Sequence record: OR567511.1
Direction: 5' to 3' (one strand)
DNA: 64,000 nt
From: Enterobacter phage vB_Ent31
Position 1 is the first letter of the stretch. Each line of letters begins with the position of its first letter. This document shows positions 5,239-43,545 of the stretch, in pieces. The translations under genes and the position numbers were made by a program. The notes beneath the pieces were generated by a model. The model was not told where the DNA came from, made no database searches, and saw only the letters and a program-made list of their open reading frames with translations.

Positions 5239-5573
5239 TTGGCAGCCTTAACAATTTTGAGGTCGACGAAGCCTTTCTTGCGCTGGTTCTTCATCTTACG
5301 GATAGTGCTGTCAGAGATTTCTTTACGCTTTGTAGTTGGAATACCGAAAGCATCAAGATTAAATTCGGACAGAATGTAAGCAACAACCAGTTCACGGATA
5401 CGAGCTTTACCAATTTTCTGGTCATTTTCTTTCATCGTACCATGCAGTTCAACTTCCCACTTATCCAGCAACTTAGGAGTCACGATAACGTCTTTGAACT
5501 CACCATCAACTTTCATTGCTTCCACCTTCGGGAATACGAAAGCGTTCAGTACGTTTTTGATAGCCTGTGACAT
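5235..5573 (-). CDS. hypothetical basic protein (112 aa)
   Basis: ORF track. Lys/Arg-rich C-terminus. Confidence 0.5.
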   Translation of the reverse strand: MSQAIKNVLNAFVFPKVEAMKVDGEFKDVIVTPKLLDKWEVELHGTMKENDQKIGKARIRELVVAYILSEFNLDAFGIPTTKRKEISDSTIRKMKNQRKKGFVDLKIVKAAK

Positions 5574-37576: not shown

Positions 37577-37607
37577 GCTGAGGCGAAAGATTTTAAAGAA
37601 GATATTT

Positions 37608-37639
37608 GGATTCACCAGAACGGTTGAGAGGAACTTTCT
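37608..37639 (-). repeat. 32-bp exact repeat, copy 2
   Basis: Identical to 14788..14819 and in the same terminator-repeat-promoter arrangement. Confidence 0.8.
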
Positions 37640-37669
37640 AGAAGAGAATGATTAAACCATTGACTATGC

Positions 37670-37712
37670 ATACAAAAATGCCCTGAGTGTCATAGAGATA
37701 CCCAGGGCATTA
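37670..37712 (-). terminator. intrinsic terminator closing tRNA block 1
   Basis: Minus strand ATGCCCTG-(17-nt loop)-CAGGGCAT followed by TTTTTGTAT. It is the first strong terminator downstream of tRNA-Thr. Confidence 0.65.
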
Positions 37713-37961
37713 AAATTGTTGTATTTATATGCAACAACGCCCCGTCCGAAGACAGGGCGTAAGAATCGACAGCACCACCCACTGGCAGATGGTCTGCAGA
37801 TGTTCATTCCCAGCGACTCGGAGGCATCAGTCTCGCCACTGGAAATATAGCGCCGTGGAGGTTATGCTTGCGACAGGGAACAACCGACTAGCGGCAATGG
37901 AAAACCATTCTCTTCTAACACGACGTCTCAACGAGGGCATACGCAAGTTTCCCTTCGAATT

Positions 37962-38037
37962 TGGTGCCGATTGCAGGAGTCGAACCCGCGGCATCTTCAT
38001 TACAAGTGAAGCGCTCTACCAGCTGAGCTAAATCGGC
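37962..38037 (-). tRNA. tRNA-Thr (anticodon TGT)
   Basis: Reverse complement GCCGATTTAGCTCAGCTGGTAGAGCGCTTCACTTGTAATGAAGATGCCGCGGGTTCGACTCCTGCAATCGGCACCA has canonical arms and encoded CCA. Confidence 0.9.
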
Positions 38038-38039
38038 TT

Positions 38040-38137
38040 AAGACGGAAATAAGGATTCGAACCTTATGTAGTTGCACAGACGTATCTGCCGTTGAATTCC
38101 TCACTAAGTTTAAGCAACTATTCCCGGGGTCTTAATT
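38040..38137 (-). ncRNA. tRNA-like element / small stable RNA candidate (T arm present, cloverleaf not resolved)
   Basis: Contains TAAGGTTCGAATCCTTA (T arm) and a possible acceptor CGGGAAT/ATTTCCG, but no canonical D or anticodon arm. ~98 nt. Wedged between tRNA-Thr and tRNA-Leu. Confidence 0.35.
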
Positions 38138-38222
38138 TGGTGCATCAAGAGGGATTCGAACCCTCAATCCTTTCGGCGGAAGATTTTAAGTCTTCTGTGT
38201 ATACCAGTTCCACCATTGATGC
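38138..38222 (-). tRNA. tRNA-Leu (anticodon TAA), class II
   Basis: Reverse complement GCATCAATGGTGGAACTGGTATACACAGAAGACTTAAAATCTTCCGCCGAAAGGATTGAGGGTTCGAATCCCTCTTGATGCACCA with long variable arm. Confidence 0.9.
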
Positions 38223-38228
38223 GAAATT

Positions 38229-38313
38229 TGGAGCTAGGAGTGAGATTCGAACTCACGAAGGGATACCCGGCGGATTTGCAATCCGCTGCCTTTGGCCACT
38301 CAGCAACCCTAGC
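38229..38313 (-). tRNA. tRNA with Cys-type anticodon arm (GCA) and discriminator U, but an 85-nt class-II-like architecture (13-nt variable arm)
   Basis: Reverse complement GCTAGGGTTGCTGAGTGGCCAAAGGCAGCGGATTGCAAATCCGCCGGGTATCCCTTCGTGAGTTCGAATCTCACTCCTAGCTCCA. The anticodon arm GCGGATTGCAAATCCG is as recalled for E. coli tRNA-Cys. Confidence 0.7.
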
Positions 38314-38317
38314 AAAT

Positions 38318-38396
38318 TGGTCGAGGTAGAGGGATTCGAACCCGTCGACCTGTGGATTAGAAGTCCACTGCTCTATCCAGCTGAGCTATACCCCGA
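38318..38396 (-). tRNA. tRNA-Arg (anticodon TCT)
   Basis: Reverse complement ...CGGGGTATAGCTCAGCTGGATAGAGCAGTGGACTTCTAATCCACAGGTCGACGGGTTCGAATCCCTCTACCTCGACCA. Confidence 0.85.
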
Positions 38397-38500
38397 GTGT
38401 GTTCAGACAGGACTCGAACCTGTAAGCATGTTCTTGCGGCGTTTTACCACCATCGTCAGCGTATGATTCAATACGCGAACTCAAAAGGTGTTGGACCCCT
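38397..38500 (-). ncRNA. tRNA-like remnant / small RNA candidate (T arm ACAGG-TTCGAGT-CCTGT, no matching acceptor)
   Basis: The T-arm motif sits immediately 5' of tRNA-Arg but a cloverleaf could not be completed. Could be a T4 rnaC/rnaD-type stable RNA or a pseudo-tRNA. Confidence 0.25.
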
Positions 38501-38535
38501 TGTCTACCAATTTCAGCACTGAACAACTTTATTTA

Positions 38536-38763
38536 TTACATATCAACTTGTGTAAACCAGTTGATTTTGAAATACTCATCAAAATGAAGAGCAGGCTCAA
38601 CTTGAGTATCCTCCTCAAGAAGAATTAAATTCTTTCTTACAAGAGGGTCAAGATGAGTTGTGTTTAAGCAACTATCATGCCAATATGTAAGTACTCTATT
38701 AGATTCGGCGGTATCAACAAGATAACGAACATTCATATCAGGATGTCGGTACAGATTAATCAT
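38536..38763 (-). CDS. hypothetical protein (75 aa)
   Basis: ORF track. Confidence 0.45.
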   Translation of the reverse strand: MINLYRHPDMNVRYLVDTAESNRVLTYWHDSCLNTTHLDPLVRKNLILLEEDTQVEPALHFDEYFKINWFTQVDM

Positions 38764-41709: not shown

Positions 41710-41803
41710 ATATTTTTCAGGATGGACGCCACTCTACATTTATGGGTCGAGTCTCCATCATAAAACGTCACGGTCCTCGGCGATTTTCCGTGGTCTGAAA
41801 ATT

Positions 41804-41878
41804 TGGAGCATCCAGAGAGAATCGAACTCTCATCTACTGGGTGGAAGCCAGTCATAATAGCCGCTATACGATGGATGC
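41804..41878 (-). tRNA. tRNA-Gly (TCC)
   Basis: Reverse complement GCATCCATCGTATAGCGGCTATTATGACTGGCTTCCACCCAGTAGATGAGAGTTCGATTCTCTCTGGATGCTCCA. Confidence 0.85.
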
Positions 41879-41883
41879 AAATT

Positions 41884-41958
41884 TGGCAGGCCCTGAAGGA
41901 ATCGAACCCTCATCACTGGGTTTGGAGCCCAGCATAATAGCCGTTATACTAAGAACCT
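41884..41958 (-). tRNA. tRNA-Trp (CCA)
   Basis: Reverse complement AGGTTCTTAGTATAACGGCTATTATGCTGGGCTCCAAACCCAGTGATGAGGGTTCGATTCCTTCAGGGCCTGCCA. Discriminator G. Confidence 0.85.
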
Positions 41959-42040: not shown

Positions 42041-42106
42041 ATGGAAAGCTAATCATCTAATTGTTGATGTACCACTGCTATGGACAGTGTTTAACTTTCA
42101 TAAATT

Positions 42107-42191: not shown

Positions 42192-42197
42192 AGTATT

Positions 42198-42283
42198 TGG
42201 TGAAGGAAGTGTCATATAGACACAATTCGCTTAGCGACAGCCACAGCGTTTTGCGGGCCGTGTATTTTTCCACCATTCCTTCA
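42198..42283 (-). ncRNA. tRNA-like small stable RNA candidate (86 nt, acceptor GAAGGAA/TTCCTTC + ACCA, non-canonical T loop)
   Basis: Reverse complement TGAAGGAATGGTGGAAAAATACACGGCCCGCAAAACGCTGTGGCTGTCGCTAAGCGAATTGTGTCTATATGACACTTCCTTCACCA. Paired termini and an internal GTGTC/GACAC hairpin, but no TTCRA T loop. Same strand and spacing as the flanking tRNAs. Confidence 0.4.
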
Positions 42284-42287
42284 TTGT

Positions 42288-42363: not shown

Positions 42364-42455
42364 ATCAATATTCACTCCATCATGAGGACTTCATACGAAA
42401 TTAAGAGAAGAATGATTAGTTCAACCCCTGTAGACGCGTTGAATGAATATTAATT

Positions 42456-42612: not shown

Positions 42613-42770
42613 ATTTATCCGGGTTCTTGAAGTACTAACAAGTAGCTTGATGTAGAACACGCTAAAGATATAATCTTCCGAATATAGAGCTTATCCCGTG
42701 GGAACAAACAGCTTCGTCCTCGGCATTATCTTATAGGACTCAAACTCATCTTCAAGAACTGCCTCATATT

Positions 42771-42847: not shown

Positions 42848-43093
42848 ATAAATTTACTTTCGTGAGTATGGGATTACCCTCAAGCCTTCCGGAAAGCTGA
42901 ATAGGCGTTATTGGCTCTCATATACCCGTGCACAGATATAATCTTCATTAACACAATAACTTCATCAATATACTCCGAAAGTAAACTTTCGGCGCCGTAT
43001 TTAATTTGAGCTATGTGGTTATCGTTGAGGGAACTCATAGTCAGGGATTAAAGTGCCGACGACTTTGTCAGAACGTCTTCCAACTTCTATATT

Positions 43094-43457: not shown

Positions 43458-43545
43458 TGGTGGGGAGTGATGGAGTCGAACCACCCGAGTCGCAATGACA
43501 ACAGATTTACAGTCTGCACCGCTACCTCTACGGAATTAACTCCCC
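43458..43545 (-). tRNA. tRNA-Tyr (GTA), class II
   Basis: Reverse complement GGGGAGTTAATTCCGTAGAGGTAGCGGTGCAGACTGTAAATCTGTTGTCATTGCGACTCGGGTGGTTCGACTCCATCACTCCCCACCA. Confidence 0.85.

Follow-up and report, generated by a model that had tools for sequence, protein, structure and literature searches.

Two candidate families of tRNA-derived, non-decoding RNAs in the tRNA array of Enterobacter phage vB_Ent31

Two tRNA-like elements between the tRNA genes

The transfer RNA (tRNA) array of Enterobacter phage vB_Ent31 carries, in addition to canonical tRNA genes, two short elements with tRNA-like ends, designated A and B. We consider it fairly probable that they represent two unrelated families of non-decoding, tRNA-derived RNAs, which are maintained as exchangeable cassettes in a polycistronic tRNA operon and processed as stable scaffolded RNAs. 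As families they are new, but they belong to a kind already known, namely the stable non-tRNA RNAs found in T4-like tRNA operons, and they probably have a job other than decoding. The basis for this view is the structures of the elements, their covariation and conservation, the absence of an anticodon, a cassette-like presence or absence, and the failure to detect homology with rnaC or rnaD of phage T4. The DNA analysed was a stretch of 64,000 nucleotides (nt; sequence record OR567511.1), referred to as the window, and all coordinates are those of the window. Judged by its sequence, the source phage is T4-like and belongs to the genus Karamvirus; the region 37600-38620 (1,021 bases compared) is 99.8% identical to Enterobacter phage EnC07. 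Element A (38042-38127) and element B (38399-38525) both lie on the minus strand, as do all of their parts described below, between called tRNA genes and 4-11 nt from the neighbouring tRNAs.

The motif GGTTCRANTCC is present in 16 copies in the window, compared to 0.17 expected, and 16 of 16 are on the minus strand. Fourteen of these are inside called tRNAs, and the remaining two fall in A (38053-38063) and B (38410-38420). Neither element was called by ARAGORN with default settings or by the Rfam model RF00005, even at an expect value (E) of ≤10, and neither matches any family of Rfam 15. An earlier note on this DNA had already pointed to two tRNA-like elements here and had proposed a search with Rfam models of tRNA and of phage stable RNAs. 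RF00005 has no match at A or B, and Rfam has no rnaC or rnaD family. In permissive Rfam searches, the non-tRNA matches were at chance level only (YrlA, plastid untranslated region families and Ysr49) and reused the T arms or adjacent tRNAs. YrlA (RF02553) was rejected as a candidate, with 23.5-24.2 bits against a gathering score of 69 and matches that borrow the D arm of the next tRNA. Like the tRNA-like domain of transfer-messenger RNA (tmRNA), YrlA resembles A and B in that an acceptor-like helix and a T arm are kept and the anticodon is absent; however, YrlA is circularly permuted relative to tRNA, whereas A and B are not.

Structure and distribution of element A

The core RNA of element A comprises 86 nt, from acceptor position 1 to the discriminator. 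The 5′ strand of the acceptor stem, CCGGGAA (38121-38127), pairs with the 3′ strand UUUCCGU (38043-38049) over 6-7 base pairs (bp), position 1-72 being a C.U mismatch; the discriminator is C (38042), and no CCA is encoded. The T arm is UAAGG-UUCGAAU-CCUUA (38050-38066). Both of these parts had been recognised in the earlier note, as had a GTTGC/GCAAC bracket, which proved to be part of a longer helix, P2, formed by UAGUUGC (38114-38120) and GCAACUA (38069-38075). P2 is 7 bp long in the window and 6-7 bp in the family; it directly abuts the acceptor stem and takes up positions 8-9. Between its strands lie loop J, UUAAACUUAGUGAGGAAUUCAACG (38090-38113), which is 24 nt long, purine-rich and nearly invariant, with a GG that could stand in for G18-G19, and hairpin P3, GCAGA-UACG-UCUGU (38076-38089), a 5-bp helix whose UACG cap is found in all copies except that of Citrobacter phage CF1, which has a longer loop. 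In the family model, a linker of 1-2 nt separates P3 from the T arm. Element A has no separate D arm, since positions 8-14 pair with the stretch immediately ahead of the T arm to form P2, and it has no anticodon arm.

Immediately outside the core, the leader UUAAGAC (38129-38135) can pair with the trailer GUCUUAA (38038-38044). This helix is used by the minimum-free-energy fold and is present in Jiaodavirus-type copies; in the jumbo phage Moabite the pairing is weaker (5 bp), and reading of the flanks by hand revealed none in the remaining groups. Folding of the single sequence of A was unremarkable (z-score -1.1), and folding energies taken by themselves tell little here.

In a hand alignment of homologues, acceptor pairs 2-6 are changed on both sides (five pairs). 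P2 changes from UAGUUGC/GCAACUA to UAGUCU/AGACUA in jumbo phages, with two compensatory pairs, P3 from CAGA/UCUG to CGGA/UCCG, with one compensatory change, and T-stem pairs 1 and 2 covary (UA/GC and AU/UA). When unedited genomic sequences were aligned by covariance model R1, 95.5% of the cells of the four-helix model were paired, compared to 36-44% with the partners slid, and 11 pairs were changed on both sides. R1 gave 83-99 bits for family members and 12-24 bits for ordinary tRNAs and T4 rnaC; the window copy, which is among the sequences used to build the model, scored 98.8 bits (E 3.5e-22). A plain MAFFT alignment, in which 1-nt indels put the strands out of register, yielded a meaningless RNAalifold consensus and was replaced by the hand alignment and the covariance-model alignment. 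Loop J follows the consensus UUAAACYUAGUGA(R)GGAAUUCRAMG (24-26 nt) across six lineages with differing helices.

Some further features of loop J were recorded. The triplets UAA, UAG and UGA share one reading frame (U-UAA-ACY-UAG-UGA), and within that stretch the only base that varies is the third of ACY. An EcoRI site (GAATTC) is present in the loop as well. No antisense target of loop J, with ≤3 mismatches over 20 nt, was found inside the window.

BLAST identified homologues of A in several groups of phages. Copies 100% identical to that of the window are present in Jiaodavirus JD18 and in EnC07, the sole Karamvirus match; the identity is ∼95% over the core in Salmonella phages of the S16 group, 79% in CF1, 80% in jumbo phage N1M2 (253 kb) and 82-83% in jumbo phages of the Moabite group (∼275 kb). 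The homologues are always located within a tRNA cluster, and the window has one copy. In a survey of the annotation of A and B in ∼85 GenBank records, A was unannotated or placed under a dubious open reading frame (ORF) and never annotated as RNA. Wider scans added only further Jiaodavirus-type copies: (i) no host copy was detected in 5,426 Escherichia coli genomes, (ii) a scan of 185,579 species genomes gave one match, a Sulfurimonas contig that fails the model, (iii) a looser motif scan of viral contigs gave 15 new marine-type contigs (L026-L041 less L034), with 0 members by R1, and (iv) five metagenome motif matches (L021-L025) fail R1.

Structure and insert types of element B

Element B is an RNA of 127 nt, including the discriminator C at 38399, and ARAGORN in intron mode gives exactly this span. 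Its acceptor stem consists of seven perfect pairs between UGUUCAG (38519-38525) and CUGAACA (38400-38406), followed by C, ACU and tRNA-Arg, again with no encoded CCA. The earlier note had correctly identified the T arm, ACAGG-UUCGAGU-CCUGU (38407-38423), and had described the element as lacking an acceptor partner; the partner begins 19 nt past the end that it had assigned to B, and the element extends 25 nt beyond that end. The D arm, CUG-AAAUUGGUAGA-CAA (in DNA, CTG-AAATTGGTAGA-CAA; 38500-38516), is of the class II tRNA-Leu type, with a C.A mismatch at the first stem pair. A variable-region remnant, GCAAGAACAUGCUU, occupies 38424-38437.

In the proposed layout, the anticodon stem-loop is replaced by an extended arm of ∼62 nt (38438-38499). 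The arm starts with helix S1 (GGGGU, 38495-38499, with ACGCC, 38438-38442) and continues through an internal loop (CCAA/GUAAA), helix S1b (CACC, 38487-38490, with GGUG, 38448-38451) and a second internal loop (UUUUGAGUUC/UGACGAU) to the hairpin S2/H2 at its tip (GCGUAU-UGAAUC-AUACGC, 38459-38476). ARAGORN places the insert in the anticodon loop, at position 32/33, and the covariance-model alignment agrees.

The 5′ 25 nt and the 3′ 24 nt of B are those of a class II tRNA-Leu. The 5′ 22-mer (degenerate pattern TTCAGTGNTGRAATYGGTAGAC) also heads canonical tRNA-Leu(UAG) and tRNA-Leu(UAA) genes in viral contigs L046 and L050. B matches canonical tRNA-Leu in its acceptor stem, in U8-G9, in its D arm (a 3-bp stem with the loop AAAUYGGUAGA) and in its T arm; in contrast to it, B has no 7-nt anticodon loop, no fixed discriminator A73 and no encoded CCA. 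The acceptor stem is almost invariant across copies, and the discriminator may be C, A, U or G.

Three types of insert were distinguished. Type 1 is present in the window, in other Karamvirus genomes and in JD18-like Jiaodavirus genomes, type 2 in Marfa-like Jiaodavirus genomes and type 3 in L043 and L044, two further isolates. Types 2 and 3 align by sequence, and for these RNAalifold returned a cloverleaf in which a 5-bp anticodon stem leads through an internal loop to a 4-bp helix and then, in the distal part of the rod, through a conserved asymmetric loop (UUGAAAC/UGAGUA) to a 5-bp hairpin. This consensus contains 11 covarying pairs, and the D stem covaries between G-C and A-U. Covariance model R2, for which only types 2 and 3 were used, recognised the window copy of type 1 with 71.2 bits (E 5e-14) and the JD18-type copy with 81 bits, compared to 45-56 bits for canonical tRNA-Leu with the same scaffold and 35 bits for the phage's own tRNA-Leu(UAA). 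R2 places type 1 in the same layout as types 2 and 3 (S1, S1b and H2). Over 15 sequences of all three types, 96.8% of cells were paired, compared to 26-43% when slid, and 17 pairs were changed on both sides. Within type 1, compensatory changes occur in the H2 hairpin (G-C to A-U, and U-A to C-G in a flanking pair), in the first pair of the T stem (A-U to G-C) and in one S1 pair. A lack of covariance support for any structured RNA was part of what, according to the earlier note, would refute its observation; in other phages both A and B are conserved, and their helices show compensatory changes.

The type 1 copies are 126, 127 or 128 nt long, which rules out an overlapping ORF. In the surveyed GenBank records, B carries no annotation, is mislabelled tRNA-Phe (127 nt) or tRNA-Val, or lies under a hypothetical ORF. 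Single-sequence folding of the 3′ 121 nt of B, a query without the 5′ strand of the acceptor stem and U8-G9, gave an unremarkable z-score of -0.9. Loop-E, sarcin-ricin, kink-turn and Shine-Dalgarno-like motifs were sought in the conserved loops by eye only, and no consistent fit across the types was found.

A 124-nt element located just upstream of tRNA-Gly in Citrobacter phage CF1 (L006, 2307-2430) scores 36.7 bits with R2. It combines a leucine-type D arm with an extended arm, has mismatches in the acceptor and T stems, and may belong to the B family as a divergent or decaying member.

Strength of the structural models

Several observations weigh against the proposed structures and have to be set beside this evidence. 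In element A, the acceptor pair 1-72 is mismatched in Jiaodavirus-type copies, and the leader/trailer helix competes with the last acceptor pairs. Manual edits of 1-2 nt in each sequence were made in the seed alignment of R1 to restore the register of the strands, the family comprises about six independent lineages, and the effective sequence number of R1 is 1.3. Two of the alignments (A6 and A8) were fitted to the models and therefore lean to the modelled structures. In element B, the rod (-30.7 kcal/mol) is less stable for the window copy than the fold of minimum free energy, which has four local hairpins (-39.2 kcal/mol). S1 has only one compensatory pair within type 1, and a large share of the covariation that is apparent comes from comparing insert types, the alignment of which depends on the model. 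In addition, four G-rich or C-rich segments of type 1 can also pair as two local hairpins. The rod layout is thus less secure for type 1 than for types 2 and 3. The residual loop around the insert is 9 nt long, lacks U33 and differs by type (CCAA+GUAAA, AAUA+GGAAA or CGAA+GUAAC), and whichever fold holds, no type leaves a 7-nt anticodon loop.

Cassette-like distribution of element A

The slot between tRNA-Leu and tRNA-Thr occurs in three forms. It consists of (i) 1 nt in VPA32, PG7, VIPKPNOM02 and other Karamvirus and Jiaodavirus genomes, (ii) element A, ∼100 nt, or (iii) an unrelated 121-nt element with paired ends and an ...UUCUUCACCA terminus in Raoultella phage Ra_O-2. Since tRNA-Leu and tRNA-Thr work at a spacing of 1 nt, A is not a processing spacer. 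The JD18 copy of A is, as stated above, 100% identical to that of the window, and the surrounding region is only ∼90% identical. The window is a mosaic at this point, with a tRNA-Leu of the Karamvirus type and an element A and start of tRNA-Thr of the JD18 type; this mixture of types points to recombination within the array.

A further spacer with paired ends was noticed between tRNA-His and tRNA-Ser (42192-42287, minus strand). It has an 8-bp terminal helix and ends in ...CUUCCUUCACCA, and it resembles the 121-nt element (...AUUCUUCACCA) in the Leu|Thr slot of Raoultella phage Ra_O-2 (L051). These two may form a third cassette family, with an acceptor-like end and an encoded CCA.

Proposed maturation and function

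In tRNA, the acceptor/T-arm unit is the part recognised by RNase P, by the 3′-trimming nucleases and by the CCA-adding enzyme. A and B each keep such a coaxial unit (7 + 5 bp = 12 bp) together with a canonical T loop, and their anatomy, i.e., the 12-bp minihelix and the tRNA-like spacing, is compatible with release by RNase P as discrete RNAs. The host machinery that matures the adjacent tRNAs would then also excise A and B and leave stable tRNA-like molecules. RNase P would be expected to cut at 38127/38128 (A) and 38525/38526 (B), the 3′ ends would form when RNase P cuts at the tRNAs downstream and exonucleases trim what is left, and the CCA-adding enzyme may add CCA to both RNAs. The tRNA-like fold would confer stability. 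On this model, A and B would not be spacers needed for the maturation of the flanking tRNAs.

The place of the anticodon is taken by a conserved cargo. In A, a 7-bp helix clamps loop J and the UACG-capped hairpin, and in B, a tRNA-Leu body presents the ∼62-nt arm, with its internal loops and terminal hairpin, instead of an anticodon loop. Our best guess is that the cargo is the working part and that, by binding or titrating a factor of the host or the phage, it would act during infection in the takeover of the host or in counter-defence. A role as a decoy or in counter-defence would be plausible. Phage tRNA arrays are shaped by tRNA-targeting defences, and such a defence can be overcome by a raised dose of phage tRNA (PMC10264068, PMC13096335).

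A broader and more speculative proposal, which we think is rather unlikely, is that A, B, the T4 species 1 and 2 RNAs and other non-tRNA cassettes are all tRNA-scaffolded decoy or sponge RNAs traded by phages as modules for counter-defence or host takeover. The tRNA body would engage or evade tRNA-directed factors of the host (such as nucleases, transferases or synthetases), and the cargo would give specificity. If true, this would explain the movement between unrelated Enterobacterales phages and the polymorphic slots.

Alternative explanations

Five other explanations were weighed, and all were rated well below the view that A and B are processed, non-decoding scaffolded RNAs. The one that survives best, although it seems improbable, is that A and B are selfish or hitch-hiking DNA cassettes with a functionless RNA, moved by homologous recombination or by gene conversion through homing endonucleases. 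This would account for the presence or absence of A in the Leu|Thr slot, for allele replacement in two genera and for the full identity of A in Karamvirus and in Jiaodavirus JD18 between flanks that differ, and genes for HNH or Seg-type endonucleases are present in or near such arrays (PMC13096335). However, the four helices of A and several of those of B are maintained by compensatory changes, which implies selection at the RNA level, and loop J, the most conserved segment, is kept in jumbo phages with quite different flanks.

The covariation bears equally on the suggestion, made among others in the earlier note, that the elements are decaying pseudo-tRNAs, i.e., functionless relics of duplicated tRNA genes. 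That ARAGORN and Rfam call neither element, and that the window copies contain mismatches (the first D-stem pair of B and pair 1-72 of A), would fit such relics. Yet the helices covary, the best-conserved parts are those unlike tRNA, and A is common to unrelated phage groups, so this explanation is highly improbable.

It is also very unlikely that the elements decode, B as a tRNA-Leu gene with an anticodon-loop intron that is spliced out and A as a similarly odd tRNA. With respect to tRNA anatomy, both elements have a 7-bp acceptor stem on a 5-bp T stem and a T loop of the UUCRANY type, and B has a D arm of the leucine type, although in the window the first pair of its stem does not match; A lacks a D arm of its own. 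An anticodon arm is absent from A, and the stem of B runs into an insert of 47-50 nt. The insert of B does lie precisely within the anticodon loop, the intron mode of ARAGORN reports B as 'tRNA-Phe(aaa)' with a 47-nt intron, GenBank labels it tRNA-Phe or tRNA-Val, and at a lowered threshold ARAGORN reads A as 'tRNA-Phe(gaa)'. But the calls for B disagree on the amino acid, the 9-nt residual loops lack U33 and depend on the type, no intron or ribozyme family of Rfam has a match at E≤10, and an insert of ∼47 nt is far below the size of a group I intron. Enterobacteria are also not known to have a tRNA splicing endonuclease. As to A, the D stem proposed by ARAGORN fails in the Moabite copy, whereas P2 covaries. 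The intron-mode call and the GenBank labels are artefacts of the intact scaffold. The description of the elements as tRNAs with unusual insertions, another idea of the earlier note, holds structurally for B, in which the anticodon loop of a tRNA-Leu body takes up an insert. B is nevertheless not a decoding tRNA, as none of its types restores an anticodon loop, and A has lost the anticodon arm entirely. Neither element encodes CCA, whereas in all four neighbouring tRNAs the 3′ end is CCA and an A/U-rich spacer comes next. The acceptor and discriminator of A vary freely, which, with the missing CCA, argues against a conserved aminoacylation identity, and from their sequences A and B do not appear to be built for charging.

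The species 1 and 2 RNAs of T4 (rnaC and rnaD) are stable non-tRNA RNAs of the tRNA operon with unknown roles (PMC3014915, PMC9697503, PMC12685909), and the earlier note had suggested that A and B are their counterparts. As an analogy this stands: rnaC, like A and B, is a tRNA-derived non-tRNA RNA within the tRNA operon of a T4-like phage. Its alignment contains a long, covarying hairpin of the variable type besides a T arm and a 7-bp acceptor-like helix, and the hairpin and T arm mark rnaC itself as derived from tRNA. Species 1 RNA is excised by tRNA-processing enzymes. Orthology, by contrast, is scarcely credible. In its favour are the common setting, the T arm and acceptor-like helix of rnaC, and a similar 12-nt motif in A (UAGUGAGGAAUUC) and rnaD (GAGUAAGGAAUUG). 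Against it, BLAST of T4 rnaC and rnaD with the window gave E values of 0.13 or worse (best for rnaD, 0.76), and nhmmer with a three-sequence rnaC profile gave a best E of 0.65 in the window, with nothing at A or B. Likewise, R1 scores T4 rnaC at 17 bits, as ordinary tRNAs, and R2 has no match in T4 rnaC or rnaD.

True homologues of rnaC occupy a different slot. In T4 the order is tRNA-Arg, rnaD and then rnaC; in Karamvirus PG7 an rnaC homologue (L048, 8492-8630; 79% identical) lies between tRNA-Trp and tRNA-Gly, and in L044 another (5308-5446; 85% identical) lies next to the same two genes. ARAGORN miscalls the 3′ 95 nt of the PG7 homologue as tRNA-Met. In the window, tRNA-Trp (41884-41958) and tRNA-Gly (41804-41878) are 5 nt apart, and rnaC is therefore absent. 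Apart from its slot, rnaC differs from A and B in having a 44-nt 5′ extension and a class-II-like body. By anatomy, A and B are best regarded as putative functional analogues of species 1 RNA and not as its orthologues.

Equally hard to credit is that A mimics the tRNA-like domain of tmRNA, either titrating SmpB or acting as a minimal rescue RNA that offers stop codons: A does combine an acceptor stem and T arm without an anticodon arm, contains GGAAUUCGAC, which resembles the tmRNA motif GGAUUCGAC, and has UAA, UAG and UGA in one frame of loop J, but its pair 3-70 is G-C, U-A or C-G and never G.U, the match of its core to E. coli ssrA is within the range of shuffled sequences (69-287 of 500 shuffles score as high), and the Rfam tmRNA model gives only a 5.8-bit match to the T loop.

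Implications

The function of the two stable RNAs of T4 has not been known for about fifty years, and the present locus indicates that such RNAs are not an oddity of T4. If the proposed explanation is right, the tRNA arrays of T4-like and some jumbo phages harbour several unrelated families of conserved, tRNA-derived, non-decoding cassette RNAs. We regard the structures of A and B as solid and the spread of A over unrelated phages as notable. Near-identical natural phages with or without A, or with different B inserts, make the function testable.

The combination of scaffold and cargo seen in A and B would parallel, in nature, the tRNA scaffolds of RNA engineering. Ponchon and Dardel are said to have made such 'tRNA scaffold' constructs, with a cargo RNA in the position of the anticodon stem-loop. 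The likeness lies in a tRNA body that gives processing and nuclease resistance and in a cargo at the site of the anticodon arm. The engineered scaffolds are artificial, whereas A and B are natural, conserved and phage-encoded, and A also replaces the D arm.

Other features of the tRNA array

The window contains 19-20 tRNA genes according to ARAGORN and Rfam, all on the minus strand and grouped in two blocks. A twentieth tRNA (43461-43545, minus strand) is reported by Rfam with 39.1 bits and missed by ARAGORN. Read 5′ to 3′ on the minus strand, block 1 consists of upstream ORFs (including a gp30.3-like gene), element B, tRNA-Arg (38318-38395), tRNA-Cys (38229-38313), tRNA-Leu (38138-38222), element A and tRNA-Thr (37962-38037), followed by ∼230 nt of structured non-coding sequence and a hairpin with a T run near 37690-37730. 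The four canonical neighbours, Arg, Cys, Leu and Thr, set the ends of A and B. A scan for promoters and terminators detected no promoter-like site directly upstream of B, which suggests that B is read through from the upstream ORFs. Among Pfam families, Phage_30_3 was the sole match to the ORFs flanking the elements and was uninformative.

The tRNA-Cys(GCA) gene (38229-38313, minus strand) is 85 nt long and has a class II shape, with a long variable arm, a 3-bp D stem and discriminator U73. These features are uncommon in tRNA-Cys of the bacterial type; L044 has a similar gene.

Block 2 contains non-tRNA spacers of 66-96 nt on the minus strand (41710-41803, 42041-42106, 42192-42287 and 42364-42455). 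Their ends can pair, e.g., UUUUCAG/CUGAAAA and GAAGGAA/UUCCUUC, and none has a T arm. Two gaps in this block are longer, namely 42614-42770 (157 nt) and 42848-43093 (246 nt). All of these may be further processed stable RNAs.

The ∼230 nt located 3′ of tRNA-Thr (37725-37961, minus strand) are non-coding and are conserved at 84-92% across Karamvirus and Jiaodavirus genomes. Their conserved fold includes one long helix with four compensatory pairs, and a GCCCUGUCUUCGGACGGGGC hairpin is located at the end. Beyond this hairpin, a second hairpin with a T run lies near 37690-37725.

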